A stretch of DNA of 64,000 nt from Albugo candida (GCA_040437565.1 JBDOQK010000005.1:310001-374000), one strand, 5' to 3'. Positions 631 through 30,400 are shown, counted from the stretch's first letter. Made by a program: numbers and translations. The notes: generated by a model not told the origin, from the sequence alone.

Positions 631-3600
631 ATGAATCCACAAGAATTCACCGACAAAACACAAGAGTACCTTCAAGCAGCAAAAAGCCTCGCCGAAGACG
701 CAGGCCACGCGCAACTGACTCCAATCCATCTCGTGCAAGCCTTATTCGATGACAGTGACGGTCTTGCAAAGCGTCTTGCAGATCGTGTCGGCGCCAACAC
801 CCCAGGAATACTCCAGGAAACAAGGAGACAACTAAAGCTGATTCCAATACAATCTCCTGCACCCGATCAAGTCTCTGTTGATTCTGGCATGACCAAAATG
901 CTCAAATACGCCGACAAACGAAGAAAAGAGATGAAGGACACCCATCTAGCTGTTGATCACTTGATCCTCGCTCTTTTCACACACACACAATGCGGTACAA
1001 TCTTCAAATCGAATGGTTTTGATGAGAAAAAAGTCAAAGAAGCCATTAATAAAGTACGCGGAGGTCGTTCAGTCACAAGTGCCAGCGCCGAGGAAATGTA
1101 CGACGCACTCTGTAAGTACGGTCAGAACCTAGTCTCATTGGCGGAAACTGGTAAAATCGATCCAGTCATTGGCCGCGATGAAGAAATTCGGCGTGTGATT
1201 CGCATATTATGTCGTCGCACAAAAAACAATCCAGTTTTGATTGGAGAGCCTGGAGTCGGCAAGACGGCCGTTGTGGAAGGATTAGCGCAGCGTATCGTCA
1301 TTGGTGATGTTCCTGAGTCGCTCAACTGCCAGTTATTCAGCCTGGATATGGGTGCATTGATCGCTGGGGCTAAATATCGCGGGGAATTTGAAGAGAGGCT
1401 CAAAGCTGTGCTGAAGGAAGTGAAAGACAGTGAAGGGAAAATCATCCTTTTTATCGATGAGATGCATTTGATATTGGGAGCTGGACAAACATCTGGCGCT
1501 ATGGATGCTGCAAATTTGCTGAAACCAATGCTGGCGCGTGGGGAACTGCGATGTATTGGTGCCACTACACTCGATGAATATCGTCAGCATGTTGAGAAGG
1601 ATAAAGCGTTTGAAAGACGATTCCAGCAAGTCATGGTGAAAGAGCCATCGGTGACGGATACGGTCAGCATTTTGCGTGGGCTAAAGGAACGATATGAGTC
1701 GCATCATGGTGTGCAGATAACAGACAGCGCTCTGGTCACAGCTGCGAAACTTGCAGATCGATACATTACGGAACGATTCATGCCGGATAAAGCCATTGAT
1801 ATCATTGACGAAGCTTGTGCTAGTGTCCGAGTCCAATTGGACAGTCAACCAGAGGCCATTGATGAGCTTGAACGACGACAGCTGCAGTTGCAAGTGGAAG
1901 CGACTGCACTCACTAAAGAAAAAGATGAAGTGAGTAAACAACGTCTGAAAAAAGTACAGACAGAGCTCAACACAATCAATGATCAACTACATCCGCTGAT
2001 GTTGCAGCATCAGGCGGAGAAGGAACGCGTGAATGAGGTTCGACGACTGAAAGACAAGCTTCAGCAGCTTCAGCTAAAGGTCCAGAAAGCTGAACGGAAC
2101 CAAGATCTCGCAACTGTGGCTGATCTCAAGTACTATGCAATTCCAGATATTCAGAAACGGATTGCTCAAGCCGAAATCAATAAGAGAAATGAAGATGAAA
2201 GCCAGACAAAACTGGTCTCTGAAGTTGTACGAGACGAACAGATATGCCAGATAGTTTCCCGTTGGACAGGAATCCCAGTGTCGAGACTTACTTCCAGCAC
2301 GAGTGATAGACTATTGCATCTTGANNNNNNNNNNNNNNNNNNNNNNNNNNNNNNNNNNNNNNNNNNNNNNNNNNNNNNNNNNNNNNNNNNNNNNNNNNNN
2401 NNNNNNNNNNNNNNNNNNNNNNNNTGGTGATGTTCCTGAGTCGCTCAACTGCCAGTTATTCAGCCTGGATATGGGTGCATTGATCGCTGGGGCTAAATAT
2501 CGCGGGGAATTTGAAGAGAGGCTCAAAGCTGTGCTGAAGGAAGTGAAAGACAGTGAAGGGAAAATCATCCTTTTTATCGATGAGATGCATTTGATATTGG
2601 GAGCTGGACAAACATCTGGCGCTATGGATGCTGCAAATTTGCTGAAACCAATGCTGGCGCGTGGGGAACTGCGATGTATTGGTGCCACTACACTCGATGA
2701 ATATCGTCAGCATGTTGAGAAGGATAAAGCGTTTGAAAGACGATTCCAGCAAGTCATGGTGAAAGAGCCATCGGTGACGGATACGGTCAGCATTTTGCGT
2801 GGGCTAAAGGAACGATATGAGTCGCATCATGGTGTGCAGATAACAGACAGCGCTCTGGTCACAGCTGCGAAACTTGCAGATCGATACATTACGGAACGAT
2901 TCATGCCGGATAAAGCCATTGATATCATTGACGAAGCTTGTGCTAGTGTCCGAGTCCAATTGGACAGTCAACCAGAGGCCATTGATGAGCTTGAACGACG
3001 ACAGCTGCAGTTGCAAGTGGAAGCGACTGCACTCACTAAAGAAAAAGATGAAGTGAGTAAACAACGTCTGAAAAAAGTACAGACAGAGCTCAACACAATC
3101 AATGATCAACTACATCCGCTGATGTTGCAGCATCAGGCGGAGAAGGAACGCGTGAATGAGGTTCGACGACTGAAAGACAAGCTTCAGCAGCTTCAGCTAA
3201 AGGTCCAGAAAGCTGAACGGAACCAAGATCTCGCAACTGTGGCTGATCTCAAGTACTATGCAATTCCAGATATTCAGAAACGGATTGCTCAAGCCGAAAT
3301 CAATAAGAGAAATGAAGATGAAAGCCAGACAAAACTGGTCTCTGAAGTTGTACGAGACGAACAGATATGCCAGATAGTTTCCCGTTGGACAGGAATCCCA
3401 GTGTCGAGACTTACTTCCAGCACGAGTGATAGACTATTGCATCTTGAGGAGCGGATCCATAACCGTGTCGTCGGTCAGGAAGAAGCTGTTAACGCTGTAT
3501 GCGAAGCTGTGGTCCGTTCTCGAGCAGGGTTATCGCGACGAGAACAACCAACCGGGAGCTTTTTATTTCTCGGTCCCACGGGAGTTGGAAAAACAGAATT

Positions 3601-4417
3601 AGCCAAAGCACTAGCGTTTGAATTGTTTGACAACGACAAACATATGGTCCGTATCGATATGTCCGAGTACATGGAAGAGCATTCCGTCGCTAGGTTGATC
3701 GGCGCTCCACCCGGCTACGTTGGTCATGAGGAAGGCGGTCAATTGACGGAAAGTGTTCGCAGGAAGCCATACAACGTCGTGTTACTCGATGAAATCGAAA
3801 AAGCGCATCCCAAAGTGCTCAATATCTTACTTCAGCTTTTGGACGATGGACGTCTCACAGACTCTCATGGACGTACCGTCGACTTTACCAATGTGGTGGT
3901 GATCATGACGTCCAATATTGGAGCTGAGCATTTGATGGCATTGGGATCCATTGATCTGTCACCTCGACACAGTAAAAAGGCTCGTCTAGATTCTGCAGAT
4001 GACGTATCACCCGTGTTCGCACGACAACGAGAGCTTGTACTCCAACAACTTCGAGCAACTATCCGTCCGGAATTACTGAATCGTTTGGATGATATTGTGG
4101 TCTTCTCGCCGCTTGGACGCGCTCAATTACGGCGTATTGTATCCCTTCAATTCGAATCGGTGGCCAAACGACTGAAAGAGAACCATATTTCCATGCGAGT
4201 GGGTGTCGGAGCTCTCGATGTCATATTAAAAGAAGCGTATGATCCTCAATATGGAGCTCGTCCGTTGAAACGATATATTGAGAAGCACGTGGTCACTGGA
4301 TTGAGCAAATTGATACTTGCGGGTAAATTGCCGGCAAAGAGTCATGTAGAAGTGATTGAAAAGGACGGAAAGTTAGATTTTGATGTGTCAGCCGCGATGG
4401 AATTGGATGCTCCATGA
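631..4417 (+). CDS. HSP101: Hsp101/ClpB (Hsp104-type) disaggregase; single gene of about 887 aa once the gap-flank duplication is removed
   Basis: Clp N-domain; NBD1 GEPGVGKT and FIDEMH; coiled-coil M domain; NBD2 [15 protein letters not shown] and GARPLKR. Bases 1302-2324 recur at 2425-3447 across the N gap, and removing 1123 bp gives one uninterrupted ORF. Confidence 0.97.
1302..3447. repeat. Gap-flank direct duplication (assembly overlap), 1302-2324 = 2425-3447
   Basis: Matching 1023-bp copies on either side of a 100-N gap. Confidence 0.95.
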
Positions 4418-4545
4418 TGAGCATGGAGCAGCATTTGCATTCAGTGTGTGTGTTTATTATTTATAGCAATTAATATAATTGTAAAGGTTTGACCTTCGTG
4501 CAACATACATTCCGATGAGATTGGTTGTGTTCTCGAATTTCTCGA

Positions 4546-7209
4546 ATGGCGAAGGATGAGCTGTCTTTCGAATCGAAAGCGGAGGCACCAGCGGCACTGT
4601 ACACTGTCGATCTTGACCGCTTAGCGGGGCTTCTCGATATCTCTTCTAGTGAGCTTGTTGCTGGCTTCCATGCGACTTCAAAGGCTCATGGGATGCAAAG
4701 TATTCTACTCGATTCTGGTCAAACGTCTGCGCTTGAAACCATACAAATCGACCACACGCATCCAAATCAACCGCTTTCTGCTCTGTCTGAAGCGATCGAT
4801 CCTTCCAAATCCAATTCCACAGCGTCTGAAGTCGTCCGAACTGCGGAGCACAATTTGATCCGACAAGTTTTACTGACGACAGTTGCTCGGTCCATGCACT
4901 TTGAATCGAAAGAAAAACCAAAATGTCTGATGGTATTGGGGAAACAAACGATTATCGGTCATATTCTGACTCAATTGCATGCTGCTGGTATCGAGAAAGT
5001 TGTAATTCTGATTGCAGCTGAGGGCGAGCGAATCATCAAAGCTGTCACTAAATTGAAAGTGTTTGCGAAAATGAATGTGACATTCCTCGATCTTGGACCG
5101 GAAGCAAACATATCACACGCTGAGTCCATTTTGGCTGCTCGTGAGCACTTTGGACAATTGCCTTTTATGGTTCATACAGCCGATCGAATATATGATAAAG
5201 CCATTCTGAATCGAGTGCTCGATTTCAAGTTGGATCAATCAGCGGCATGCGCGCTGATTGAGATGGATACGAGTCTTTTGATTGATTTGCCGGCTACAGC
5301 CGTCAGAATCCAAACTGACGGGAAGAGTATTGTTGCCATTTCGAGGTCGCTGGAAGAGTATAACGCTATTGAGGCTGGACTCTTCCTTATGTCGGATGCG
5401 ATCTTCGCCACTTTGGAGAGTTTGGTGACCACTAAAAATTACTTTTCGCTTGCTGATGCGCTCGGTTGTTTTGTTCCATCCAATCAATTGGCATACCTTC
5501 CAACATTGGGACAGACTTGGTTTAGTATCGAGACACGAAGACAATTTGACTTTATCGTCGATAATGATTCCATTTCGCGACTTAAACCATGGAATGTGGT
5601 TCTCTCATCTCCAGCAACACGAGGATACACTCTAGAGGATAAGCGAAAGCCGAACCTCATGTTTGTGATCACTGGTCAAGAAGAATCACAGCTTGGTCTG
5701 GAAGGCGGTCCTCTGAACAAAATCGAGGGTTTTGTTGTTCCGGTTAAAAAATCGATGCGAGGTTCCACGTCCCACCACAGCTCAGAAGACAACACTTTCG
5801 AGATTGTGAATGACCAAACTCCGCTGCTTGGGTCAATTGAAGATGATAACGAGCAATCGACACCCTCAAGCCCCAGAGCAAATAGTGGGAATCACAGTCC
5901 AATTTTTTCCGACTCGGTCGTGGTGACAGTTCCGCTCGATAAAGATACCAAAAACGACACAGAAGTTGTCAATAACACCCATCAAGGGTACTTGATTGAA
6001 TTGAAACGCGAGCCTGAAACTCCTGTCACATGCACAGACTCAAAATATATGCTCGCTCTTCCAACAGCAAATATAGAGACTGGGACAGATATGGATTTAA
6101 TGGATCGATCGATCCTTCCGTCTCATATCACTGGAATCACTTTGGAAACGAGTGGCCAGGACGACAATTTGCAAATGACAATGATTGTCAAGAGAAAAGT
6201 ACCAACGATTGGCTATGTCGTCTTACTATTTGCTCTGATTGCGATTTCATCGGTTGGCGTTGCTTTGGACATGGAAACTGGTGTCACTCCGTATCTCAAA
6301 CTCCTGTGGAGAAACAGTTTTGTCTTTTTGATCACATTGCCATTGACGATCTTTTATGTGCCCAAAGACTCCAAGCCAATTTGGACGCGACATTTGGTAT
6401 TGGAAATGATTATTGCAGGAATATCATACGCCTTTTTCATCGGATCGTACGTCGTATCGTTGTCTCTGACATCTGTGGGTCACGCAACTCTTTTCAACAA
6501 CGCTCATTCCCTCTTGATCGTACTCATTAAACTATTAACAGGACGCACAGTTTTGCTTTTTGAAGGCATTGGGGCTGTTATCGGAGTGTTGGGTGGTGCT
6601 TGTACCACAATGGACACAGTTTCAGGCGGAGAGATCACAGGGAAAACGTCACCGACGGCAATTGGAGACTTTGTCGCGCTTATTGGAGCTCTTGGAGGAG
6701 CTGTTTACCTCATTTACGCAAAGAAAATGCGTTCGAAAATGCACATTCTGGTGTTTCTGAATGCGCTGACGTGTATTTCAACATGTGTACTTTTCTTCAC
6801 GATATTATTGCGCAAGGAACGCTTGGAATTGTCGATGGATTCGCATTATGGCATTTTTGGATGGATCAATCCTCGATTTGATCGAATTGGTGTGGCACTG
6901 TACCTTATTTTTGTATGTGATCTGATCGGTACTACAGGATACGTCACTGCGATGAAGTACTTTGAGCCTATTGTGATTTCGATTGTATGTCTATTGGAGC
7001 CAATTGTCGCAACGCTTATGGGAATCCTGACTGGCGTTGACTCGATTCCCGGTACTCTTACCGTTATTGGTGCGTCGCTGGTACTCTTAGGAACATTTTT
7101 TGTCATTTCCGCGCAAAACAAACATCACGCAAGAGAGAAGATTGATGCCTCGGCCGCTGCAACTCCAAAAATCATGCGCAATCCGCGCGCGCCCGCGCCT
7201 TCGTATTGA
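4546..7209 (+). CDS. Fusion of a nucleotidyltransferase-like domain (IPCT/LicC, COG1213-like) and an EamA/DMT transporter
   Basis: Intronless ORF with ATG at 4546. About 4858-5560 carries KPKCLMVLGKQTIIGHILTQLHAAGIEKVV, SILAAREHF, HTADRIY, NAIEAGLF and GQTWFSIET. A S/T/E-rich linker follows, then about 10 hydrophobic helices in two EamA-like repeats at about 6205-7120. Confidence 0.85.
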   Translation: MAKDELSFESKAEAPAALYTVDLDRLAGLLDISSSELVAGFHATSKAHGMQSILLDSGQTSALETIQIDHTHPNQPLSALSEAIDPSKSNSTASEVVRTAEHNLIRQVLLTTVARSMHFESKEKPKCLMVLGKQTIIGHILTQLHAAGIEKVVILIAAEGERIIKAVTKLKVFAKMNVTFLDLGPEANISHAESILAAREHFGQLPFMVHTADRIYDKAILNRVLDFKLDQSAACALIEMDTSLLIDLPATAVRIQTDGKSIVAISRSLEEYNAIEAGLFLMSDAIFATLESLVTTKNYFSLADALGCFVPSNQLAYLPTLGQTWFSIETRRQFDFIVDNDSISRLKPWNVVLSSPATRGYTLEDKRKPNLMFVITGQEESQLGLEGGPLNKIEGFVVPVKKSMRGSTSHHSSEDNTFEIVNDQTPLLGSIEDDNEQSTPSSPRANSGNHSPIFSDSVVVTVPLDKDTKNDTEVVNNTHQGYLIELKREPETPVTCTDSKYMLALPTANIETGTDMDLMDRSILPSHITGITLETSGQDDNLQMTMIVKRKVPTIGYVVLLFALIAISSVGVALDMETGVTPYLKLLWRNSFVFLITLPLTIFYVPKDSKPIWTRHLVLEMIIAGISYAFFIGSYVVSLSLTSVGHATLFNNAHSLLIVLIKLLTGRTVLLFEGIGAVIGVLGGACTTMDTVSGGEITGKTSPTAIGDFVALIGALGGAVYLIYAKKMRSKMHILVFLNALTCISTCVLFFTILLRKERLELSMDSHYGIFGWINPRFDRIGVALYLIFVCDLIGTTGYVTAMKYFEPIVISIVCLLEPIVATLMGILTGVDSIPGTLTVIGASLVLLGTFFVISAQNKHHAREKIDASAAATPKIMRNPRAPAPSY

Positions 7210-7438
7210 TCGTGTCTATATTGGTGTGTCAACACATAAAAATAGGTGAGCTCAGACTAGCATCATGCTAATTTTCAATTATAATCATACTTTGTGCTGA
7301 CAATTTGCGCTGTCTTTCGACGTCTTTTTGTGCTCCAGCAAAGCGATTTCGGTAAAAGAGATCGCTCTTTGCGCTATCTATTGTCAGTACTCTGCATGCG
7401 GCAAATTTCCCACGCTATCGTTGTACTTTGCTGACACC

Positions 7439-9768
7439 ATGCGATCGCCAAGAAGCGCCTTTGCGTCGCCACGAAGTCGTCAAGTCCATTCCTCATCGTC
7501 GGCTTTGTCACCGTATAAAGGCTCTCCGTCAATGTACTCAGAAGGCAGAATCTCATTGCGCGTTGATCAGCCGATCGAATTGTGCCAAGTCGCAGCTCAT
7601 GTGTTTTATCGACCGATTGACGGGGATTCAGACGAAAATAAAGTCGATTTTGAGTTTTCGTGGTATCGATCCGAAGTGACGTGTGCATGTACGAATGAAA
7701 TGTGTCCCAAAAAAGGCGATGGAAACATTTTACTGCTCACTGCAAACGTCGAATGTTTATTGTGTTATCAGCTTGGAATTTCGAGAGAGTTTTCAGCATT
7801 TTGCGGTGTGGCATGCTTCAAAATGGCATGGAATAGCCACAAACATTTGCATGAGTCACATCAATTGACAGATTTGGTTCGAGGATCTTTGAATCTCGGA
7901 GAACTTGGTTTGCTTGACAAAACGCGTCCATGGAAAGCCATGTTGGAGCATAGTAGTCGATTGTTTAGGGCGACAGAGGATAAATGGATTGATCTTAAGC
8001 ATCATACGTGAGCGTTCGAAAGCGACGACCGAAAGAATCGCTCATATCTTTTTTTGTAGAAAGACGTATGTGCCAACTGCGAACGACATTGGCCACATTT
8101 TGCGCGTGGAATGTCGAGTGATGCGACAAAGTGCTGGTCTCATACAGTCCAAAGTCGTCGATACTGGGATTGTTTTGCCATGTGAGTTGATGATCAGGGG
8201 GGTAAAATGCGATTGTTGATGTTGTTTTTGCATTTCACAGTTCCTTCTCCGCCACCCAAACGCCAAATGCTTGCAAATGTTCACGAAGAAAGGCATACAC
8301 CACGTATTCGTCAGATTGGAGTATTTCGGGTACTTTCGTATAATGTTCTTGCGGAGCTATATGCCACGAGGCAACTGTATCCATACTGTCCGATGTGGGT
8401 ACTAAGCTGGAATTTCCGAAAGGAACTTCTCAAGAATGAATTGCATTCGTATAACGCAGACATTTTGTGCCTCCAGGTATGCTGGTACCAGATCCTCGCT
8501 TTCACACGATGACGAGTTTATTTTAACCGTAGGAGGTGCAAGGCGACCATTACAAAACATTTTTTTATCCGATGATGGCTGAGTGGGGATATGACGGATG
8601 GTATTTGAAAAAAACACGTGAATCCATGGGTTTAGAGGGAAAAGTTGACGGCTGCGCGCTTTTCTACAAGCGGAATCGGTGATGTGCCAATTGTTCACAC
8701 CCATCAATCCATTATGAATGTACTTGCATCATGCAGATTCATTCTCAAAGAGCAGCATCCTTTGGAGTTCAATACGGCCGCATGTAATTTTGCTTCTTCA
8801 GTAATTGACCTGACGTATCCAAGTTCGACTTCATTCAGTCGAGACGTAATTTGTATTCCGAGGCGTCCCATTCATCACTTACTTGTATCTACAGGCATCT
8901 CTATTACGATTAAAAACCCGACTTATGCGGGATAATGTCGGACAAATTGCGATATTGGAAGCTGTTCCTTCCACCAATGAACTTTGTACGTCCAAATAAT
9001 CCGTTTGTCTCACTTTTTGAATTCACATTTTTTTTGTCAAAAAGCGAAAAAAGCTCATTCCGGCCCTTTGCTTTGTGTTGCAAATGTTCACATATTTTCC
9101 AATCCGAAATTTCCCGACGTCAAAATGTGGCAAACTTTCACACTTGTAAAGAAGGTACTCATCTATTTTGTGCTTCTGTTTCATATGATTGCTTTTCGGG
9201 TATCTGTATATGGTAGATTGAGCAAGTTCTCTCGGCCCGCGATCTGCCTGTCGTCCTGTGCGGTGACTTTAACAGCGAGCCAACCAGCGCTGTTTATGAA
9301 TTTTTGAGCAGAAATCACGTCTCTGCGAGTCATGAGGACTTGCAGCCACTAGCAAGCATCTTCGATTCCATAGAAATCACCCATTGTCTCGCCCTGGCCA
9401 GCTCTTATGCGTCGGTCTTCCGCTCGGAACCAGAGTANNNNNNNNNNNNNNNNNNNNNNNNNNNNNNNNNNNNNNNNNNNNNNNNNNNNNNNNNNNNNNN
9501 NNNNNNNNNNNNNNNNNNNNNNNNNNNNNNNNNNNNNGTGGTACACAATCTTGATTTATTAGGACACTGGACGGGTGTGGTTGATTATGTGTGGTACACA
9601 CCATCTAATTTGGCACTCTTTGCAGCGCTTAAAATGCACCCTCCAGAAACGTTGGAAGCGTATGCAAAGACGCCTCTACCTAATTGCCAGCATACATCGG
9701 ACCACGTGCCTTTGTGTCTGGATTTTAGCTTCAAAGCTCCGGTGGTAAATGGACGTTATGTAACCTGA
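7439..9768 (+). CDS. CCR4: CCR4-family EEP deadenylase with an N-terminal zf-C6H2/MYND-like finger (plant CCR4a/b-like); multi-exon
   Basis: FRVLSYNVLAELYAT, ADILCLQEVQ, DGCALFY, VVLCGDFNSEP, GVVDYVWY and SDHVPL across about 9 short GT-AG exons. The finger reads CLLC...FCGVACFKMAWNSHKHLH. A small true gap lies at 9438-9537. Confidence 0.92.
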
Positions 9769-15422: not shown

Positions 15423-18400
15423 TTAGAAATCTGTGTTCAGACACAAAGCAACACCTTGGAGGATCCAATGGCTCTCGTGCTCGGTCGAGTGTAAATCAGC
15501 TTCAAAAACAGACCCGACACCCATCGCATTTCTTCGGGCTTGTGTGATGTATACCGGAGCTCGAAAGGTATTTTGCAACTTCAGACGATTTATCTCGATG
15601 GGAATGATGTGAAGGAGAGGTAATTCTTCAATCAATTGCTTTGGTCGTTGCGGTGCAAGACAGCCTCTTTTTCGGTCCCATGAAGCACCCTCCAAAAACA
15701 TTCCGTGTACGTAGCATCCGATCTCCAAATCGCTGGATTCCACTTCAGATTTATTCATATAAGACGTCACTTTTGTGTACATAGTGGTCTTATCGAGAGC
15801 CCATTTTTGCTCTCTGCAAGTGGCTTGCATCAGCGCTGTGAGATACGACTCGGGAACACTGAGACCGGATAGCCATACGACCTTGAGTTCTCCATCCTTG
15901 ATCCATTCTGTGTATTGAAGGTGCCGATTCAGCAGATGGCTGAAGTAGCTTGCCAGAGGCTTTTCCGTATCCGGAGAAAGCATACGCCACATTTTCGGGA
16001 TGGAGGCATCATAAAGCTCATTACCCAAGGCGTCTAGCTCGTCACTCATGCCAATATCGCCAACCAGGGCTTTGCGTAGATCTTGTAACGAGGCATACAT
16101 ACGAGTATGCAAAGCATTCCATCGATCCAGCTCTTGCATCAGGACAATCTGAGTCGGATTTGGTGTGGGAAACTGTTTTCGAACAGCGACGACATCAAAT
16201 GACTCGGGTAATTGGCTTTGTATTTCCAGTGCCACTTGAGCAATGCGATCTTCTCGAGACTGACCACTGGTATTCTCAGCCGATCTGGGCTGCAAGCTTA
16301 TCAGATCCTTCCATACCGTCTTTGACATGCTCGTATAATATCCGATCTCAGCGTTTGGATTCAGCCCAAAAACAGCCGGGCTGTTTGTCAGTGGGAGACG
16401 ATCGACGGTCTCGATATAAGCGTTGATGTTCGATCCCGAAGAAGGAAGACAGTAGTCATGCCCGTAGCGACTGAAATAGAAGGGTTGACAATCATCAAAC
16501 AAGAAATCGCCCATGTACTCGGACAAATATGTGGTGAGGATTCTTCGGTCATATTCATCACTCACTCGACCTCCGTACATGGCGTCTCCGATAATGTAAC
16601 GAAGAGAGCCCCAAGGCAGCTGTTCGTCTCCATCTTCTTGGGCTTTATACAAGTATAATCCTAGCAGTTTTCGCGAAATATTAAAGTCAGAATCGTTGAA
16701 ATCATAATTCACATTCCAGCCGATTTTTCCATACTTGCGACGTTCTAAAACTACAGCATGAAGGAAGCATAGCACGTACACTAGCGAAGGGAAGGCTGGA
16801 TGTGGACATTCATCAAGCATCGATTGATCGAGTTTGGCGTACACACTCCGCATATTTTGCTTGAGACCATCGGGGGGCTCTGTCACAACTTTGAGAGATC
16901 GTTGTAAAATACCGAGAGGAAAATAATCTGTTGGCTCGGTTGTAAGCCATAAACGAAAGTCTTTATGGGGTCGATGCATACAGGCCAGTATCTTTTCCAA
17001 CGTTTTCAGCCAGCTTGCGAGTAGATGACAGTTTTGTAAAAGTACCCAGTGACCACGAACGTATCCTATTTCTACCATTTGCTCGGCCAAATGGCCTTGA
17101 CCTTGGCCCAGAGCAAGATAGCGAAATCGATGACCTGAGAAGCCATGTGTCTCACTCAAAGCCTGTATGTCTCCCTGAGGGTCCGCACCCGGGCTCAAAA
17201 TGCATACAATTGGAGATATCGGAGAGCTTTGACTGTATATGCGTTCGTAATCGAGTACCGGTGGTTGCACATACTTTTCACCCATCACACTGCTTACGAA
17301 TAACTCCATTGCATTGTAAGCACGATCTTGCCGAAAACAGCGAAGCAGTAATAGTTTTTGTAGCTCTGTGAGACGATCTGAGTAGCCATTCGGAAACGGA
17401 ATCGCTTCTGGGGCTTCCGAGTCAGCCCATCGCTTCCAGTAGTCTGCGTTCTTTGCGATTTCAATCTCAATATCTGCAAAGATCTTTTTCGATTTGCTTA
17501 GAAATATCAAATCCTTCCATCCTATGCTCGATATCCACGCAAGGGAATCTGGTTGAGGCGGAAGCGTTTTGTCGATCAAAATACTTCCTTTTAGGAAGAA
17601 ATCTAGCTCCGAACGCTCCAGGCTTCCTGCTTCCTGCAGAATCATACACGTCATTTGGAACGCAAATATCAGTTTGTGCCTTTCGAAAATTCCAGTGCAC
17701 GTGTACTCGTACGTCAGCTCCGTCACAGATTGTATCATATGACGCAGCCGTTTGCTCATGACCGTGTCCCGTTTGGCGTGATTAAGAGACGTATTGAACA
17801 CCACCAAGAAGGATGACAGAGAGATCTCATACATTTTCATCAGACTGCAGAGCGCTGCCATGGAAAAGTACATCGCAGACCCTCGAGACGCGACTGGGGT
17901 ATACACAGCTCGTGCCGTAGTAATCTCATCCTTTGTGGAGCTGGATAGATTTAGTTTGGAACCGATTTCTGTCGCCTTGTTTTTTGTTTCATCGAGCAAG
18001 TCAATGAGCTCTTGATTATCCAGTACGTTACCCGTGCTGCTTGACAGTTCCCGAAGTAATGTATCTTCTAATTCGACAATCAGCTGTGTGTTTTCAGACA
18101 TTTCCATCACAAGATGATGATATTGTTCCTCGAGATCGGGTCGTTCATGACCTACAACTACGTCCAGAAGCTGATTTGTCAATCCTTTCTGCGTCACTGA
18201 ATAATTGATTATCATGGTTTTACTCATGATCTCAGGAGAATAGTGCGGATTCGCTAGTTTGGATGTGAAATAAAGGCGAAAGTTCTCGTCCCATTCAATG
18301 TTTTTACCACCGAGTTTGATCAAAAGTTGGGACCCTCCTACAAACGTATTCTTGTCCAAGATGGGATCGAGAATCGGGTCAAGCTCTTCGCCAACACTTT

Positions 18401-21400
18401 CAAACAAAAAAGGGTTTCCAAACTGAATTGCTAATTCTAAATGCTTCATGAAATCGCTGTCACTCAGTGTTTTGACTGTCAAGTTATTTGCTTCTTCTTT
18501 TTTCTTGATCCAGGAGACAGCTTGTTGTTGAGGGTCAACGCATAGAGGGAAGCGACTTGCTTTTGTGGTGAGAATACCATTTTCAATCGAGTTTTCGTCT
18601 GCTGGAAGTCCCTCTGAGATCCACTTTTGCATTGTAGAATCGTCCGTCAACGAACGCTCAAGCTTGAAGGGATCGGTTGTTGGAATGCCTCGTTGAAGTA
18701 AATCGGAGTGCAAGTCTTTGTATATCAATTGTGTTCGATAATCGAAATTGAAAGCGCCTGCATAGCTCAGAAAACTAGCATTCAGTAAGCAATCTCCAAT
18801 CAAACGACCGCTTTGTTCTTGCAACGATCCGACATCTTTTGTCCACCGAACACGTTCGGATGCCAGACCTGCCAATAACTTGTTTGCTGCTTGCAACCGC
18901 TTCGCCATCTTCTCTGCTTGGGATTTAAGTCCTTGCAATTCTGTGTTAGCTTCTTGGTATTGCGTGGAGAGATTCTCCAGCTCTTGACGTAGACTTTTGA
19001 TCGTGTCGTTTAGATCTTCTAGCTCTTGTTCTTTGACAGCTTGCTCCTTTTCCATACTCTTCACTTTATTACGCAGTGGTTCTACATTCTTTGCAACGTC
19101 GTAGTATTTGATCATTGCAAGTAGCCAAACCAATAATCCGGAGCCCGCTTTGGAAATGGACTTCATGTTCTCGATATTCAGGTCTGGATTTTTGAGAAAC
19201 GTCTTGATTTTTGAGATCATTTTCGAAGAAATCCTCGATTTCTCGTATTCCTTCAAAAGCATGAGCAGATTTGGGTTGCTAAGCATCACTTTAGCTCCTT
19301 TCCAGTCCAAATCCAGCTCTTGTCCGGTTGGTTTTAAGATCAGTACACACATGCACACGGACATGACTAAGGCTGGTGGAGATGCAAAAGACTTGATTTC
19401 AGTCAAATCTGCCTTGGATAAATCCTGTAAGGCTGCAGCTGCTGCCTCAACTGCGGGTAATGCTTCCAGTAATGCCGCATCTGCATCGTCTTTTTCCTTA
19501 GTAATTACTAAGGAAGCCTTCTCACATTCTGCCTGAGCAACTTTAGCGACATTTTGTTGCTTCGTTGCCACTAGTGACTTCTCCTCGATTGTCTGGATCA
19601 ATGCCTCGCAAGCTAGCGTTTTCTCATCAACGACTACCTTTTTCTCCGATAATTCTATCTGCATTGTATCAACTGATTTGGATGCTTCCACCAACTTGGC
19701 AAGACCTCCATTAAGCCTCAGAATGCTTGCATTAACAGTCTGATGATGATCCTTCAGTTGAGCGCGATATGTTGCGATATAGTCAAGATAATTTTTCGGT
19801 GTCACATAGTAATGTCGTCTCAGTTCCTCCGTGAACTTGGAAGATAATGATACTACCCTCATGTGCGCATGTACCAAATGATTTGTCACTGCTTCACGAA
19901 ATTGATCTGGAAGCTTTTCGTGCTGAATACAGTGCTCAGCCACATTGAAAAGAGCGGTCTGAGGCCAAGGGAAGAACCAATCGATGATTGTTCCAGATAT
20001 GAGTCCAGGAAAATTGCGACAACGAGTGCGTAATACATTGCCTGAAGGTGACATGGCTAGAATAATATGAAGATTCTTCCGACATCGATCAATGTAGTAT
20101 TTCCATAGCATCTCGGAAGAATCAAGCACTCCAGCTTCTCTAACCTCTTCTCGAAGTGTACAAGTTATTGCGTCTCGTTCTTCTTGATCAAAAAGAGCCT
20201 GAACAGTACCGGTCGTTAGCATATTGTTTAAATACTCGATGAAAGCTTCATTTACGGCGTGTGCATCTGTGAACAAGAAGACCACCTTCTTTGTCCCTAG
20301 TTTACGATACAGTGTTTTCAGATCTTCACGAAATTCAGTTTCTCCATAACTTCGAGTCAAAAAAATCTCAAATATCTCATACTGCGCTGTGAATGCTGCT
20401 AAACGCGATAGACTCTGTTTTCCATACCCTCCTGTTCCAATCAGCAAAGCATGACCGAAATCTGTCTTCAGAATCCGAAAAAGACGACACAGATGCTCCA
20501 AAACCATTTCGAATAGAACAAGTGTCATTGGTTTGTGATCCATATTATGTATCTCTATGACTTCCTCCATGATGCGACGGACCCGTTGGTAGGATCCCAA
20601 GTCTTCGTATAATCGTGGATCTTCACTATCAGAATTCTTCAGACAGTTTGTGCGCGCAGCAAAATCTCCAAACACCAGAGGGTCTACAAGCGCGTGCTCC
20701 ACGACTTCGTGTGAGAAATGATCTTTTAGAGTGGTGCACAATGTCGTTTGGATAAAGTGGAGATCAGTTTCATTCGTAAGTCTATCACAAAACACACGCG
20801 TGATTTCATTCCGGAAGAGCCGAACTATTTCCTTGGGACCTTGGATCACGTCGGGAGTTGCGAGACAAAGGCCTTCACAAACTCTACCAAGATCGCGAAG
20901 ATTGAATATATAGTGGAATTTTGCTGGCGTTGGAAGACATTTTTCCCGGATTATGCTGAACAGCTTGAGTAAAACATCCGTGAGCTTGGATCCCGTTTCT
21001 TGAACAGAGAGATTAAAGTCCTTCAGGAAAGTCGATACAATCGAGCCGAATATCCCTTTGAGCACGTTTGTTGTTGGTGGATTTATTTTATAGACGTTGA
21101 ACAGTGCTACAAATCTTGGATCGACGGGGTTTCGACCGCCACTGGGAGGGCCCATGGCGCCGAGAAAGATAACATCTCTTAGAAACCTCAAATCGAGATC
21201 TTTGGCACGGTCATAAAATGCACCTTGATTCATCATAAAGTGAAGCAGCGCGATAGGTTGTTGTGTCCCATACATATCCATTTTGGGCATATTGAGGTCA
21301 TCCACGAAAACAAACAATTTTTTCCCTGCAGCTGGACCATAGATTTGCCCTGTTCTTTTGTCAACGTTTCTTTGTATGTTTTTCTGTACATCCATACTGC

Positions 21401-24400
21401 TTGTTTGCGATGAAAAGTTAAGCGATAATACAGCAGCTTTATGCGTATCCATTCCACTGAGAAAGCGATCGATGATGACAGTTTTCGCAGTCCCGCTGTC
21501 ACCTACAAATAATACTGGACGCTCGCAAGTTTTGCAAATACTGGTGAGAAGAAAATCATACAGAACAGAGTCTGTTGTCGGCACAAAAATTTGACCAAAG
21601 CTGAACGGCGAGGGCTGTACATACGACATCACTTGTGATTCCCAAGGTTGCCACTTGTGTGATTTGATGCAATAGTAATACTGATAGATGCTCGATGTAG
21701 GAGGTGGCATGGAGCCTTCCGCAATCTTGCGCAAAAAGCGATCAAAGTGATGACGACTTGAGTCAACAAGAGCTGATCCAATGGACCACATGATACTGAA
21801 TAAGAAGATTCCCTCCATGTCGTTGGTATAAAATGGGGATGCAGCGATTGAAATTGTTTTTTCTTCCGTTTCAGTAGGAGCCACGCTTGTGCGAAGAAAC
21901 GTATCGATTGACGTACAAAGCTGTTTGCACATTTCCATTGCACCAACTGGAATAACTTGACGGCATTTTGAGCTCAAGTCGACCGCTTGATCCCCTTGAT
22001 CAAGGACGTATTCGATACATTTTGGTACGTAAGAATCGAATAGATCCAGGAGGAGCATGGATTCGGAAGGAGATGAGGATGATGTGATTGCGCTGTCTTT
22101 TTGATCGCTGATTTGCGTAGGTCCTTCTTGGGACTGCAAATTGCATCGCTGTCGAAGCCAGCGTTCAAAGTAAGGCCTATACCCAAGGTTTTTTGGATCC
22201 ACCCAAACCATTCCACATCGCGATATGGTTGCTGGTGATGCATATTGAAGATCAAATGCTTCACAAACCATAGAGCAATGCTCTTGAAGCCGTATTCGCT
22301 CTCCGTTTGGGAGTGTCAATATCTTATTATCATCCATTGCACTATTCATGTTTTCAACCCAAAAAGCATCAACATCTCCATCGAATACCAGCCATCTTTT
22401 CTCATTTTCTTTACCAGCCGGAAGAGGCTGATTCAGCTCACGGAATAGCTTTGATAATATCCCATCGGTCCAGTCACGAGTGACAGTGTCCATAAAGCCA
22501 TACAGCTCCGAAATTGGAAGAGCTTTCGGATTCAACACGCATACTCGTATATTTGTATTGAATGCCGTCTTTGATGCTGCTACTAGAGTTTTCAGTATGT
22601 GCGATTTTCCTCCGCCGGTGGGTCCGACTATCATTGTCGTGTGCCGTACAAGCAGCGTTTCGTACATCTGTATAATTTTATCGATTTGGTCGCGAAATAC
22701 GCGTTCATTTTGCATTCTGTACCCACCGTCTTCCATTTCCTTGATAATCGCTTCCTCAAAGTCTTCATAACCAACACGAACGTAATCCGACCCGGAAAGT
22801 AGATCGTTTATGAGTCCTTTGAATAATGGTACATCTTCATAGACGAATTTCGGCATATTGCTATCACGAAGAGCTCTCATAAGAACAAGATCTTCACTCA
22901 TGTCTGGGTACTTTCGTTTCAGTATTCCTGCTGTTACAAGCACACTTTTAAGAGCACGAAGTCCAAAATCATAATGGTACTGCTTGGACAACTGTTCTTG
23001 AGATAATTTGTACAAAAGAGTCATTTTTTTGGCCAACACAACAGCATTTTCAAATCCTTCGGAAAAAAGCATAATTTGAGCAATCATGAGGGAATCTGGA
23101 ACAACCATAGTAACGGGTCGAAAAAGAGCTTTCAGATTGTCAGGTAACTCTGTTCGTCCAGCATACCCAGGATTCATAGTAATGAAGAAGCCACACGTTG
23201 CAAAGCCAGCAGTGCGATGTATCCGAACTTCAGTCCCGAAACCAATATCAACCGTCGGCTTTTCATAGTGCAGCGCATTCTGTATCGCCCGCATTTGGGC
23301 GGAGACAACAGACAATACCTCAATATTAATGCGATTAAATTCGTCAAAGCATCCCCATGCACCGACCTGCAACAACCCCGAAAAACTATACCCCATAGCT
23401 TTGTAGTCGAGGCCTTCCCCGCAATTGATCACATAGCATGGAAGGGCGAGAGACTTTGCTAGATCTTTAACTGTCTCTGTTTTGCCTGTGCCAGCCGGTC
23501 CACAAGGTGATCCACCAAGTTTGAATGTAAGTGCTTGTGTAAGAGTCATGTAACATCGATCTGTCAGCGGCGTTATGACAAGTCTTCCGCTAAGACTAAT
23601 GTATTCGTATCCAAAGCGAAAACTCCCAGTGCATTGTGATATAAGAACGTCATTAATATCCTTTTTCCAGTAAAAACGGAGCTGTGACTCCCACGCAAAT
23701 TCTTTCTCATGCAAAATTGAATTCCGAACAAAAGAGTCGACAATATCGTGAGCATGTACGTCCGTAATGAGCAATGTGTTCACTTTTTTACGAAGATTAA
23801 TACTGAGAGGCTCACGAAGCAGTTGCACCAGTTCTCTGAGTTGATCCGCCAATTTTGCTTCTAAATTTTTCATTGCATATTTGTTTCCATCGCGAACTCG
23901 ATGAAATACATCCTCAACCTCCCACGTCCACCATATCTGAGACCCAACGAGACTCACCATTCCGAGAACGTTGTCGAGCCATTGTGTTCGTTTTTCAAAG
24001 CGAGCATAGTTGAAAACACCTTCTTTGACAATCGTGTGAAGCGTGTCTTTCATTTGTGCTTCAACATTGCTCATCCACGACTCGACTGGTCCTTCCACAT
24101 TAGCAGATGCTCTGAAATAAAAGCTTTCTCCTTCACTTGATTCCATCGCAACAACCTTTTTCATTGACGGGTGAAAAACTACCTGTTTCACGTTATCAAA
24201 GAGCTTGAGCATATGTGTTTGTATAGAAATTGGATCACTGGATCCCAAGACGCTGAGAAGTTCATCATCGGATATGAAGTAGAACCGCGAGAAAGTATTC
24301 CGTTTTGTATCGAGAAAATCACTAAGAGACTTTTGACAATTATCAAGACGATCCGATAAAGATCGCAAATCATCGAGTCGATTGTCTGACGTACAAGCAT

Positions 24401-27400
24401 CTAAAGCATTCGCATTTTTGAATGTCGTAGCCATTATCGACTTCCAAGCTTTATCAATCGCATCAAATATTTTCGCTTCTTCGGGTAATTGCTGTCGGAT
24501 GTCTTCTGCCGCTACAAAGATCGATTCCAGGTACATCCACTTTTGCTGCACCAGGAACCATACTTTGAGACATTCACCGACGAGATTGAATCGTTTTTCC
24601 CACTTTCTTACTCGCTCACTAAAATTTGAAACGAATCGAGATCCTGAGATTGTTTGCAAGTTGAGCATGTGATCTTCCAACTNNNNNNNNNNNNNNNNNN
24701 NNNNNNNNNNNNNNNNNNNNNNNNNNNNNNNNNNNNNNNNNNNNNNNNNNNNNNNNNNNNNNNNNNNNNNNNNNNNNNNNNNCTTTCATTTGTGCTTCAA
24801 CATTGCTCATCCACGACTCGACTGGTCCTTCCACATTAGCAGATGCTCGGAAATAAAAGCTTTCTCCTTCACTTGATTCCATCGCAACAACCTTTTTCAT
24901 TGACGGGTGAAAAACTACCTGTTTCACGTTATCAAAGAGCTTGAGCATATGTGTTTGTATAGAAATTGGATCACTGGATCCCAAGACGCTGAGAAGTTCA
25001 TCATCGGATATGAAGTAGAACCGCGAGAAAGTATTCCGTTTTGTATCGAGAAAATCACTAAGAGACTTTTGACAATTATCAAGACGATCCGATAAAGATC
25101 GCAAATCATCGAGTCGATTGTCTGACGTACAAGCATCTAAAGCATTCGCATTTTTGAATGTCGTAGCCATTATCGACTTCCAAGCTTTATCAATCGCATC
25201 AAATATTTTCGCTTCTTCGGGTAATTGCTGTCGGATGTCTTCTGCCGCTACAAAGATCGATTCCAGGTACATCCACTTTTGCTGCACCAGGAACCATACT
25301 TTGAGACATTCACCGACGAGATTGAATCGTTTTTCCCACTTTCTTACTCGCTCACTAAAATTTGAAACGAATCGAGATCCTGAGATTGTTTGCAAGTTGA
25401 GCATGTGATCTTCCAACTGCAACCGTAGTTCGTCGGCACTACGAAGGACATAACATCCTCGATCTTGGCCATTCTTCTTGTACTTTGTCAATTCCAATAT
25501 TGCTCGAGACCAGTATTCCTCGATTTTGTTGATTTCTTGCTCAATCTTTTGTTCTTGCATGGAAGCATTCACAATTCCAGCGAGCTTGGACCCGAATTGA
25601 TGCAATTGCATGGAGAAAAGATTGGTCAGAGTAAACGTGGAAACATTCATGTCAAATTTCACTCCGGTCAGTGCCATCAGCTGTTCCCAATGTCGTGGTT
25701 TCATTGCATCGTTCTTTAACGATTGAATAAGCGGAATACCATCTTTAAATGCCAGTATTTGTCGCTCCATTTCAGCAAATGTTGCAGCTTTTTTGCATTC
25801 AGATGAGAATAATCGAATCTTTGTCTCCAATTCCTCGACTCCTCGGGTCATAGCGGGGACATCCAACTCCACCCACAAAACGCTACCCATGATCGAAATG
25901 AACTCTTTTGCCTCGCTGTAGAGGGAAAATATCTCACTTTGCTTTTCCATTTCTTCCACTACTTCTTGAAGTTCAGGATAGCAGGTCATTGGTAATGCAA
26001 ATAAATTCTCAGCACTAGAGAGCTCCTGACGCCTTAGCTGGAAAGCCTTCATGCGTGTTTTGAATGTCTGCAAAACATCAAGGCCAACGTCTAGATTGTT
26101 CGCATGGATTCCTGGGCCGCATGAGAGTATCTCGTCTTTCAGTTTTTGACAGTCCAATTTGAATTGAATAGCTTCATTTTCGGTAACAGCTCGAAACTTC
26201 ATTTTGACTTGCACTAGACTATGATCTTTACTTTTGGCTGAGAAAAGTAAACCACTCCATCGCCGTTCCAAATTCATAGCCTGTTCTCTTTCGCCTTCAT
26301 CCACTGGAATTTCGTACGTTTTTAATGTACGAAAACATTCGATAATGTCGCAGTATTCAAGCTCCATTTCCATACTCCGATCCAGTATTCTCGTTATTGT
26401 GTGCAAAAGCTTTTTGAGCGTATCCAGGTCTACGGGATTTTCCGTCAGTTCTTCTTCAAAAGAATCCATCAGTTGTGTGCAACTCTTTGATTTCTTGCTT
26501 GAAAGTTGATATAGTATCCTTCCATAGTCGTCTTTCCACAATTCTGCCTCCTTCGCGATTGAGATCGCTACCGGAAGACAATCAATCTGTAAGAACTCGC
26601 TGTCTTTTTCTGTAGGTTGCTGACGAACAGCTTCGGCCAGGCGTGAGTATTGAGCCATCCTCGTGTCAAAATACACAAAAGGGGGATTTTTGTCAGCCAA
26701 TTTATCTAACGCAGATCGTCGCTTTGTATTCCACAGATTGTAAACCATATCGTATCGACGCCATGAGTCTAGATACTTATTAACAATATTGAACCCTTTA
26801 TGTATCTCTTGATTCAATGAAAGCGTCAATTTCAGCACATACGGATTTTGCGAAATGTCGGAATAAAATGTAAACAAAATGGGTTCATCGTCCTCGTTCC
26901 CGACCAAAGGCTCTGTTTCCCGACACGTTCCATGCATCCATCTGATAAAAGCTTTGGCGCTTTCAACAATATGTTTGACCGATTTACTCAGATACTTGTA
27001 CATGTCTGAAAGAGAAGGCGTGACGATAATATCTTTCCCATTCATGGTCGCTTTAATTTTGCATACTGGTGCGCGTCTCACAATACGCGTGAAAAGTACT
27101 CCTTGAGATTGGCTGTCGCTACTGTCAATAGTTACTTCCGATGCAACTACGTCGGAGGAGTCTGCCTCGCTGCTTTGAATGCTGGCAGCATTGCTTCCTA
27201 GACGCTTAGCTTTCTGCTGTCGTAGTAGCTGTGACTGGTAAAACTTGGATGACTCGATGTCCTTCATATGCACGTTCAATAATGCTTGCAAGGTGATCAT
27301 GGAAGCAATAATCATTTGTGTGATTGCATTGAAAATACGACGCTCCCAGTACAGATAATAGGCTGACATTTTGGGTGATGCCCCAGTATTGACCCCAGCA

Positions 27401-30400
27401 ACAAGCTCTTCCACTTTGATCAAAAGTGGGCCAATGGATCGATACTTTTGCACCAGCTGTTCGATTCGCTTAACCCGATTGCGTTCAACAATTTCATAAA
27501 AATCACTCACTTCAGTAGTGACACCTTCTTCAAAATCTTCGATTCGAATCAGTAGCGTTTCTTTTATTGTGAGCACAATATCGTCGACCATCTTGCTAGT
27601 TTTGTGAATCTGGGACACCAAATTACCGAATTGATTTAGAGCACGATTGCAATTCTCAGTGAAGCTCGTAATTCGTTGGGAGTTCCAGTTCAAAGGCGAG
27701 AATCCGACTCGAAGTACCTCTCGTAGATCCTCTAGCTGAATTCGGAGAAGATGTTTTTCCACGGGTGTGAGTGCGAAGAGAAGAGAGTCATAATGCTTTA
27801 GCATAAGCGTCAATTCCTGAATATGCTGATGGTATTTCTCCTCCTGTAACGTCACATTAAGAGCACTTTCAGGAATATCAAAGCCGAGTCGATCCAAATA
27901 CTTTGATTCTCGGATTACAATGATCAAACCCGAAGCAAAATTTGGATAATACGGAGGGTCTGGAAGTCGGTACAAGGATCCACCTGTGTCAGATTTGCCA
28001 ACTTCTATCAATTTCGGTCCCAAAATGGATTGTCGAAGATACTCACTGATCGCTTGGGGGGTCTTATCCTTCCATTCTGCATGCAGAGCCTTTATGTACG
28101 CATCAATTGCTCGGGCAAATACCAAGTATCGTTCTTTTACCTCTTCTCCAAGTGGAGAACGTAAGAGATCATTCATCTCACGAAAACGTAAGATAGTTTT
28201 TTTTGCGCGCAGATACAAACTTCTCGCCCATGCGATCGCACCAGCCACGGGCGGATGATGCTTATATAATGGGGGATTATCCTTCCGCTGTTGAAATTGA
28301 CTTTCAAGAGTTTCCAATTCTTTAGTATATTGCATCAGGATGTCTTGGTATTTCTCCATCATTTGTCTGTTTATGCTCTCGCGTGACTGAATATTCTGAA
28401 AGTTTTGCAGTAGGTTGAACGCACCTTCAGCTGATCTCAGTTTTTGGAAAGACGAATCAATGAACTTTCGCGTCAGATTCTCAATTTCTTCGACCTGTTG
28501 TTGAAATTGAGCCATGACCGCCTCCCAATTTGCTCTGCGAGAGCGATCAAAAATTCGGAATGATACCGAATCAAAAGGAGAAATCAACTTATTGACCCGA
28601 CTTTGTATCTCTTCAATTCCTTTAGAATCTCCTGTAACAGATTTGAGCTCAGGCCCAAGAAACTCATTGAATTGGATCAATACTGTCACGACTCCTAACA
28701 AGTGATCGCATACTTTTGCCATGTAATTTGTTTGTTCAAAAAGACGTTTGCGATCGAATTCCCAACGATGATCGGTTCCGCTCGTTTCGATCCTTTCACG
28801 TACACTCATATATGTTGAGAACCACATCTCCAGAACCAATTTTGCTTGCTCGATCGTTTGTAAAGTTCTCACTGGGTTCTCAGAAAGAATTCTGTGTATG
28901 TCGACGGATACCGACACTTTTCGTGCAATCTCCAAAGCAATGCGTTCCATCAGCGGCACGACCCTTTCGTCAGTGTTGTAGTGTCGTGATATGATCCATA
29001 CCATTCTAATCGCGTTCATCATGGACGGAAGTGTGTCTGCAATGACAGAGAATGATCCCGTTGCGAGGTTTTTGAAATGCCGCTCCAGAGTTGTGAGAAA
29101 CTTGACATTATCTTTCGCTTCGATATGCAGTTTTGTAAGCTCGGAGAAATGATACTTGAACGTAAGCAACACATTAGCCTCAACGAGGTCGAGCACTTTA
29201 AGCATCTTTTGTACTCTTGGCACATTGGATTGCTCACATACCATACTAAGATTCGCGTATCGTTCACGCCAAAACTCAATTTCACCTAGTGGCCCATTCC
29301 GTTTTGGGGCTCTTCGACTCTCTTCTTCAACGATTTTGGCGATACTTTTGCACCATTCTTCCACGGATTGCTCCAAAATAATAATGAGAGCGTTATCATT
29401 CACATGAGATTCGGGAGTGGAGATTTCCACGTCTGGAATTACCAAGTAGCTTTCTCCTCGTAATTGTTGCATAGTAGTAGTAATTTGGGAGGAGAGTTTT
29501 ACAAGGCTACTTTTATATTCGTGTCGCATTGCATCCATAACGCGGAATGCGTTGAGACGATCTGTCGTGGTATTTCTTTCGGTCTCATCACCATATTTCA
29601 TCATTGACTTCGCATTATTTGAGTCTACTGGAGAATTCTGAGGTAGTGATGCTGGAGGTTCTTTGTCTTGCGCTGAGTTACTGTCTTCTGACTGCTCGGG
29701 TTCTAGTAAGGGTAAGAAGACGTGACATACAACTCCTTCCAAGCTGGAAAGTAGATCTCCATTGGAGCATGCAAGCTCGATATTTGAAAACTGAAATCTG
29801 TCCAGTTGACCTCTTCTTGTAGCGCTGGCTACTCCATCAGAGACCACATTGACACGAACTTTTTCGGAATTTATTTTGATCAAGAATATGACGGGTGAAT
29901 GTTCAATCTCCGGGGGGATGATGTTCAAAGATACCTGGCAACTTCGTCTTACTTCCTACAGTCTTGTGTGAGAGATTGCATTCAGTTGTATTTTACAAAG
30001 AAAGATGGTGATTGTACTTGGACAGATGGCGTAATACACGAAGGATTTTTATCGATTTCCTTGATCGTGATGTTTTCATCCGTGAGATATTGTCCATCAC
30101 CTGCTCCTTTGTCCTGGTTGTCCTCTGCGCTGACTACATTTGGAGTGTCTTCATCGGGGCTGGCGATTGCTTGAGTTGGCTGAGTTTCGTCATCTGTAGT
30201 AGCTCTATGAGCAAATAGGCATGGTAGAGTACTCTTTAGTGCTACGTACCAATTCTCTGAGACACCCTTTCCGTTGTGTAGAAAAATAAAACACTTCCGG
30301 CATCACTTTCACTGAAGAATGAGTCAATAAGCGAAACTGCTGGTTTCGTTGACTTGTTACACTAGGAAATCATGCAATTAAAAGTCATTCAAAAGAGCGT

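Follow-up and report, generated by a model that had tools for sequence, protein, structure and literature searches.

The stretch of DNA examined here, a 64,000-nucleotide window of the Albugo candida genome (GCA_040437565.1 JBDOQK010000005.1:310001-374000; positions are counted from its first letter), contains an intact, intronless open reading frame (ORF) on the plus strand at 4546-7209. The ORF encodes 887 aa, has no N and no internal stop, and joins in order a nucleotidyltransferase (NTase) domain resembling CTP:inositol-1-phosphate cytidylyltransferase (IPCT), a linker, and a ten-transmembrane (10-TM) EamA domain of drug/metabolite transporter (DMT) type. The fusion of this NTase domain, degenerate in its catalytic motifs, to a transporter is our subject. 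The features of the gene are as follows.

4546-7209, plus strand: whole ORF, 887 aa; first half of a beta module, pseudo-cytidylyltransferase, second half of the beta module, 10-TM EamA/DMT domain
4582-4743, plus strand: conserved N-terminal element (aa 13-66) of a strand, two helices and further strands, found only in EamA fusions; pLDDT ~78-91
4858-5580, plus strand: IPCT-like nucleotidyltransferase-fold domain (aa 105-345), the best-conserved part of the protein
4864-4923, plus strand: rewritten signature loop (aa 107-126); G114, G116 and the catalytic R118 of the bacterial sister enzymes lost, R115 and K126 kept
5173-5187, plus strand: HTAD-R/H motif (aa 210-214); D213 kept, residue 214 Arg here and His in most relatives
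5518-5535, plus strand: WFSIET (aa 325-330); within [DE]xD, Ser takes the place of the first acid and Glu that of the second Asp
5596-6201, plus strand: linker (aa 351-552) with eight predicted beta strands and disordered loops, the last strand continuing into TM1
5812-5829, plus strand: DQTPLL (aa 423-428), an acidic motif of dileucine type located within a disordered loop, a predicted endolysosomal/vacuolar sorting signal
6202-7131, plus strand: EamA/DMT transporter domain (aa 553-862), 10 TM, W588-R589 invariant
7132-7170, plus strand: two predicted C-terminal strands after TM10 (aa 863-875)

An initial annotation of the window had described one intronless ORF joining an NTP-transferase fold to a 10-TM EamA domain, and this was borne out by the ORF itself, Pfam, hydropathy and RNA; the motifs that it listed (LLTTVARSM, FMVHTADRIY, TAVRIQTDGK... 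and GQTWFSIET) were all found in the ORF. A contig from RNA run X1 crosses 4000-8007 without gap or splice, while seven GT-AG introns are spliced in the neighboring gene. As to whether the two domains come from separate transcripts, the contig is unbroken over the ORF, but since it takes in several genes it demonstrates the lack of an intron or break rather than a single transcript. Runs X5, X6 and X7 gave short pieces only.

The design is shared by a family. A search with aa 100-350 returned 43 proteins among 2909 candidates, 38 of them with EamA, and all 24 organism-named homologues of this segment were from oomycetes, the nearest named being Albugo laibachii (84%). A transcriptome-derived record, P0194, carries both domains. 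The database labels 'choline kinase' (one JGI record and one other) and 'bifunctional IPC transferase and DIPP synthase' found on members are mislabels. Run more widely, against 1.84 billion cluster representatives, a profile search yielded 1913 matches at E 0.001, of which the best 150 were examined and sorted by hand, from motifs and tree, into 48 canonical prokaryote-type enzymes and 102 others. Among these best 150 of 1913, EamA was present in 40 of the 102 degenerate proteins, and in 35 of the 41 degenerate proteins of at least 700 aa, vs. none of the 48 canonical ones.

Fold and motifs of the nucleotidyltransferase domain

The Pfam match to NTP_transf_3 (aa 124-227, E 4.5e-4) lies below the family cut-off, and the top NCBIfam match of the domain, IPCT/DIPPS NF041135 (E 3e-13), lies far below its own. 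The closest solved relatives by sequence were the IPCTs 4jd0, 2xme and 4mnd, 2xme being best in a profile search (E 1.2e-9), and Foldseek ranked the IPCT structures 4jd0 and 2xme at the top (E 1.5e-11), with GMPP and eIF2B weaker by ~100-fold in E-value. VIA-align tied IPCT with PntC and RmlA (Z 24-25), above LicC (Z 20.6-21.0). The IPCT-like fold assigned in the initial annotation thus finds support in NCBIfam, the PDB profile search and Foldseek, the last being the structural comparison that it had proposed.

According to one study (PMC6697681), the pyrophosphate (PPi) site is formed by the five leading residues of GXG(T/S)RX4-8PK and the Lys contacts the alpha-phosphate; R15A and K25A each leave <10% activity. 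We counted motifs over 162 domain rows (48 canonical and 114 degenerate), with rows that do not cover a motif dropped from its count. GxGxR was present in 47 of the 48 canonical rows and in 0 of 109 degenerate rows, and the counts for an acid at position 327, the first of [DE]xD, were the same (47/48 vs. 0/109). The loss of both motifs, which the initial annotation had noted in the window protein and proposed to check in orthologues, is therefore common to 109 of 109 relatives. Other positions were retained in the degenerate rows: K126 (93/109), D213 (110/114), H214 (103/114), W325 (104/109) and an acid at 329 (102/109, Glu in 98), together with Arg at 115 (~80%). The signature loop is equal in length to that of the bacterial sister enzymes, so the alignment register is clear: G114, G116 and R118 were replaced and R115 was kept.

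Across 64 fusions of 21-79% identity, the NTase domain was the most constrained part of the protein, with a weighted top-residue frequency of 0.48 vs. 0.43 for EamA and 0.29 for the linker, an order also seen in 30 closer homologues; 42 of its 241 columns reached 0.8 weighted conservation, compared with 26 of 310 in EamA. Seven residues of the polar pocket (K126, D213, H214, E239, E329, T330 and Q333) were at least 90% conserved in the 64 fusions, and Gly, Ala or residues of the hydrophobic core occupy many near-invariant positions. By these alignments, the degeneration is family-wide rather than local decay, and the domain would not be an active IPCT, since it fails the two defining motifs, the GXG(T/S)R loop and the [DE]xD pair.

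Bacterial sisters, spread and fusion partners

A mixture-model tree of 42 rows placed the 18 degenerate ones in one group (100/99) that joined five Myxococcota/Bradymonadales rows (100/99) inside the IPCT-like enzymes, a shape recovered in other tree builds, and that lay away from the A. candida GMPPA, GMPPB and eIF2B gamma. A profile made from the eukaryotic fusions only scored four Myxococcota/Bradymonadales domains at 139-187 bits and five other bacterial relatives at 95-125 bits; GMPPB, eIF2B epsilon and eIF2B gamma scored 40, 27 and 21 bits, respectively, and GMPPA was not reported. As to the horizontal acquisition suggested in the initial annotation, the profile scores and the tree favor a bacterial origin. 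Two points weigh against it: similarity to the query was the basis on which the bacterial tree rows had been picked, and an approximately unbiased (AU) test did not reject a grouping of the degenerate rows with GMPP/eIF2B (p 0.114), an outcome that the initial annotation had named as refuting its reading.

The scan of the genomic surroundings of the bacterial relatives took in 13 of 31 loci and, from these, 44 of 99 ORFs. In all eight Myxococcota/Bradymonadales loci scanned, the NTase is fused to a DHQS-like sugar-phosphate cyclase, with a short-chain dehydrogenase/reductase (SDR) next in six, a PfkB kinase in six, and a divergent inositol-1-phosphate synthase (INO1) in two. The operon is conserved (L014 6001-9608; L016, L018-L023) and is a candidate for an undescribed CDP-cyclitol pathway. 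Since the sister enzymes are fused to a sugar-phosphate cyclase in such operons, the ancestral substrate was most likely a cyclitol phosphate. The relatives would accordingly point to cyclitol chemistry and not to choline, and the analogy that the initial annotation drew with the choline proteins LicC and LicB was not supported, as the nearest intact relatives are cyclitol-pathway enzymes and the rank of LicB was unstable between structural models. No EamA gene was found near the bacterial relatives in 31 loci with an oomycete-derived profile that is insensitive to distant EamA, and the bacterial operon neighbors gave no match to the proteins P0064 and P0001.

Among 30 representatives looked up, named organisms with EamA fusions were Achlya, Aphanomyces, the pelagophyte Chrysophaeum and the haptophyte Prymnesium, and those with methyltransferase fusions were the euglenid Dinema and the amoebozoan Vermistella; the remaining degenerate-domain representatives are presumed eukaryotic. 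Decay has reached an intermediate stage in the members from Achlya and Aphanomyces. The domain belongs to one clade with representatives in stramenopiles, a haptophyte, a euglenid and an amoebozoan; its occurrence in four supergroups would imply either early acquisition or repeated transfer. Rather than being borrowed by oomycetes alone, the domain is a module found across protists and has several further partners. When 48 selected proteins were scanned with Pfam, a SAM methyltransferase was found in seven (P0064, P0074, P0082, P0083, P0094, P0122 and P0140), all of one uncharacterized family at 42-44% identity and always placed after the degenerate domain. In two of the seven there is also an SDMT-like domain of glycine-betaine type, scoring under the cut-off of its family, which suggests an osmolyte pathway for this protist family. 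A beta-lactamase-fold esterase was associated with the degenerate domain in three complete proteins and one fragment; in the complete ones the domain sits inside the esterase, between matches to residues 22-266 and 287-427 of 7pp3. Single cases, which may include bad gene models, involved an iolG-like (inositol-dehydrogenase-like) dehydrogenase (E 3.5e-35, below cut-off), a kinase fragment and leucine-rich repeats (LRRs). The protist methyltransferase partner was not detected in the A. candida genome, and a methyltransferase adjoining IPCT-DIPPS in locus L033 is unrelated to it.

A. candida has two paralogues of the window gene. One, ~20 kb upstream, has the same design; its 1550-aa frame, which at first suggested a tandem double fusion, is an assembly duplication across a 100-N gap, leaving a single paralogue. 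The other (contig C14; L006 2413-4935, minus strand; 840 aa) retains EamA together with the linker motifs and the N-terminal element, and has no detectable NTase domain, the corresponding stretch being unrecognizable. Duplication across 100-N gaps is a recurring artefact of this assembly that creates false long or double ORFs; sequence is duplicated either side of such a gap in ClpB/Hsp101 (631-4417, plus strand), a dynein heavy chain identified by inspection (15423-29604, minus strand) and the paralogue (L004 4416-9068).

Transporter, beta module and sorting motifs

The C-terminal half matched Pfam EamA in two stretches (E 9e-12), and hydropathy gave 10 segments in aa 550-858; two EamA repeats, 10 TM and the DMT fold are all present. 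DMT structures aligned to it by VIA-align at Z 20-26. In a first model the top match was LicB (7b0k; Z 25.9, rmsd 2.6, 248 aligned, 13% identity), with the triose-phosphate translocator (TPT) at 25.5; in a better model LicB fell to 23.8, behind YddG and PfCRT. Given this shift of the top match from LicB/TPT to YddG/PfCRT, at 11-15% identity, the models would not allow the cargo to be predicted. No solved structure was a sequence-level relative of the EamA half, and its stand-alone relatives are unannotated. Matches of SAR1 to the EamA profile were judged spurious, and PITG_17484/PscRXLR1 (PMC3320632) is a stand-alone DMT without the family motifs by eye and was rejected as a member.

Full-length modeling improved from pLDDT 65.9 and pTM 0.46 with a 30-sequence alignment to 80.6 and 0.67 with 64 sequences. 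The linker contains predicted strands at 351-353, 370-375, 392-402, 458-463, 480-486, 500-506, 528-536 and 543-550, further predicted strands lie in the N-terminal element (17-22, 48-55 and 62-64) and within the tail (863-875), and the former signature loop was modeled at lower confidence. The linker, called long and S/T/E-rich in the initial annotation, is only mildly enriched (27.5% vs. 21.5% for the whole protein) and is largely a conserved beta module. Profiles of the N-terminal element and of the linker matched none of 11 non-EamA fusions tested, indicating that the beta module is specific to transporter fusions; the N-terminal profile matched the paralogues. In the model, the N-terminal element is probably part of a coupling beta module, with the NTase domain lying between its two halves. 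Since EamA and the ~130 beta-module residues make up half of the chain and alone would give pTM ~0.5, the value of 0.67 suggests that the NTase domain has a position in the model that is set with respect to these parts. Both VIA match lists of the full-length model were taken up by the NTase and EamA folds.

A dileucine-type motif, [DE]xxPL[LI], was present in 29 of 64 linkers vs. 1.5 expected by shuffling. It occurred in 27 of 34 oomycete-like rows and two of 30 divergent rows, and in all three A. candida paralogues. We take this motif, in a linker loop, to be an adaptor-binding signal for vacuole or lysosome, and by its sequence the transporter in oomycetes is probably vacuolar or endolysosomal. 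A second motif, YG[STA], was observed within the last 15 residues of 31 of the 64 proteins (0.7 expected) and is possibly a tyrosine sorting signal; the window protein does not have it.

Elsewhere in the window, the next gene downstream (7439-9437, plus strand) encodes a zf-C6H2 finger with, by inspection, CCR4-like exons, and is the gene with seven introns spliced in X1. A myo-inositol-1-phosphate synthase (38220-39770, plus strand; Pfam E 1e-140) is encoded at a distance of 31 kb from the fusion gene; it would be a source of inositol phosphate, but its proximity may be chance. A stand-alone EamA/SLC35F-like transporter of 352 aa (45266-46324, plus strand) gave no match to the EamA domain of the fusion family.

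Function of the domain and comparison with known systems

From the fusion, fold, motif pattern, conservation, mobility and closest relatives described above, we infer, at roughly even chances, that the N-terminal domain is a non-catalytic sensor that has lost the PPi subsite, binds CMP/CDP-alcohol or a cyclitol phosphate, and regulates a probably vacuolar transporter. Loss of the subsite for the pyrophosphate of CTP would make the usual transfer impossible, while the retained residues around the alpha-phosphate, metal and acceptor should still allow a product-like ligand (CMP/CDP-alcohol or inositol/cyclitol phosphate) to bind. Placed between the two halves of the beta module on the cytosolic face of EamA, the domain would sense a cytosolic metabolite, and ligand binding would alter transporter activity or trafficking via the beta module. 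The pairing of NTase and sugar-phosphate cyclase in the sister clade suggests an inositol/cyclitol-type ligand. In support of a sensor are the pattern of lost and kept subsites, the stronger constraint on this domain than on the transporter, its mobility among partners, the paralogue with no detectable NTase domain, the rise in full-length pTM and the precedent of GMPPA; judged by motif pattern, fold and conservation, the pseudo-enzyme regulator envisaged in the initial annotation is plausible.

Several points weigh against the sensor. The motif counts come from related rows in a degenerate set defined partly by these same motifs, and hence represent one fixed change rather than independent events. 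Compared with its orthologues, the window copy has drifted further (H214 to R, P116 to S, D120 to E). No canonical IPCT was found among the A. candida PF00483/PF12804 matches, so that no evident supplier of a CDP-inositol ligand presents itself, and the partners (SDMT-like methyltransferase, esterase, kinase) indicate no single ligand. The kept and newly fixed R115, K126, D213 and E329 could, moreover, equally build a new active site. A re-tooled enzyme of this kind, in which R115 replaces the lost Arg, D213 and E329 hold one metal, and a reaction such as CDP-alcohol hydrolysis or transfer is coupled to transport as import-and-trap or convert-and-export, would account for substitutions as fixed and specific as Arg115 and Glu329 and for a domain more constrained than its transporter, and the methyltransferase and dehydrogenase fusions could be pathway fusions. 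We nevertheless consider it unlikely, given that 109 of 109 rows lack one metal ligand and the entire PPi subsite, that a single chemistry is hard to reconcile with a transporter, a host esterase, a kinase and LRRs, and that one paralogue lacks a detectable NTase domain.

Much the same low probability attaches to a ligand-free scaffold. The NT-like domains of eIF2B gamma and epsilon keep the fold for oligomerization, folding or partner binding, and such a role would fit the many near-invariant Gly, Ala and core positions and the lower confidence of the former signature loop; a pure scaffold, however, would not need the seven polar pocket residues conserved in the fusions. A eukaryotic LicB-LicC fusion, i.e., a choline permease with a domain binding phosphocholine or CDP-choline, is highly improbable: the first-place score of LicB and the automatic 'choline kinase' labels suggest it, but LicB was tied with TPT at low identity and lost its lead in the better model, LicC scored below IPCT and PntC, and the sister enzymes sit in cyclitol operons. 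That the gene is two merged genes, or its domain a dead, drifting relic, we regard as scarcely credible and already largely refuted. Although this assembly does make false long ORFs across 100-N gaps, such as the paralogue's 1550-aa frame, the window ORF contains no N, both domains recur in the transcriptome-derived P0194, and EamA accompanies the domain in most homologues (38/43) and most long degenerate proteins (35/41). The non-catalytic sensor may also be set in a broader scheme, which we put forward tentatively and consider less likely than the sensor itself: a myxobacterial-type cyclitol-phosphate cytidylyltransferase would have been disarmed once, early in eukaryotes, and since joined to transporters, osmolyte-type methyltransferases, esterases, a dehydrogenase and a kinase, all under one inositol/cyclitol-derived signal, with the EamA fusions acting as ligand-gated vacuolar transporters.

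Among known systems, the domain shares its fold with IPCT (2xme, 4jd0, 4mnd; NF041135), its closest solved sequence relative, along with the PK lysine, the Asp of (G/A/S)DH, the D/E-x-G-x-F strand and the final W-x-x-x-acid-T. Unlike IPCT, it has no GxGxR and no first acid of [DE]xD, is eukaryotic, and has EamA, not a CDP-alcohol phosphotransferase, as its fusion partner. The uncharacterized NTase-cyclase fusions of Myxococcota/Bradymonadales (e.g., L014, P0132) are its sister group, with equal loop length and a shared R-x-x-x-L-D, but have every catalytic motif intact and lie in operons alongside SDR and PfkB. GMPPA is, by its description in PMC11228364, a non-catalytic paralogue that binds product and regulates its partner, and could serve as a works-like model for a degenerate nucleotidyltransferase with catalytic motifs lost and, here, pocket residues conserved. 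It differs in belonging to another lineage on the best tree, A. candida having its own GMPPA and GMPPB, and in acting in trans on an enzyme, whereas the fusion domain would act in cis on a transporter. LicC/LicB and PntC have the same two folds as the fusion protein but are separate active genes at 11-17% identity and are not its nearest relatives; YddG, PfCRT, TPT and the nucleotide-sugar transporters share the 10-TM DMT fold of its EamA half.

Sensors of the pseudo-nucleotidyltransferase kind are known, as are transporters that carry regulatory domains. To our knowledge, DMT/SLC35 transporters are generally bare membrane domains, and we found no EamA/DMT or SLC35 transporter described with this N-terminal domain. 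A literature search conducted mostly outside subscription papers (oomycete EamA with nucleotidyltransferase, IPCT in oomycetes, pseudoenzyme nucleotidyltransferases) found no description of this family, and we came across no published account of the lineage, of its joining to a DMT transporter or of its deployment as a mobile module. The disarmed domain is probably an unrecognized metabolite-sensing module, and a pseudo-enzyme built into a DMT family would represent a new mode of transporter regulation. Its spread over four supergroups and several partner enzymes suggests an unnamed small-molecule signal or osmolyte circuit of protists, for which the soluble 240-residue domain offers a handle for ligand finding. 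If the Myxococcota link holds, the family would be a further case of myxobacterial input to eukaryotes.

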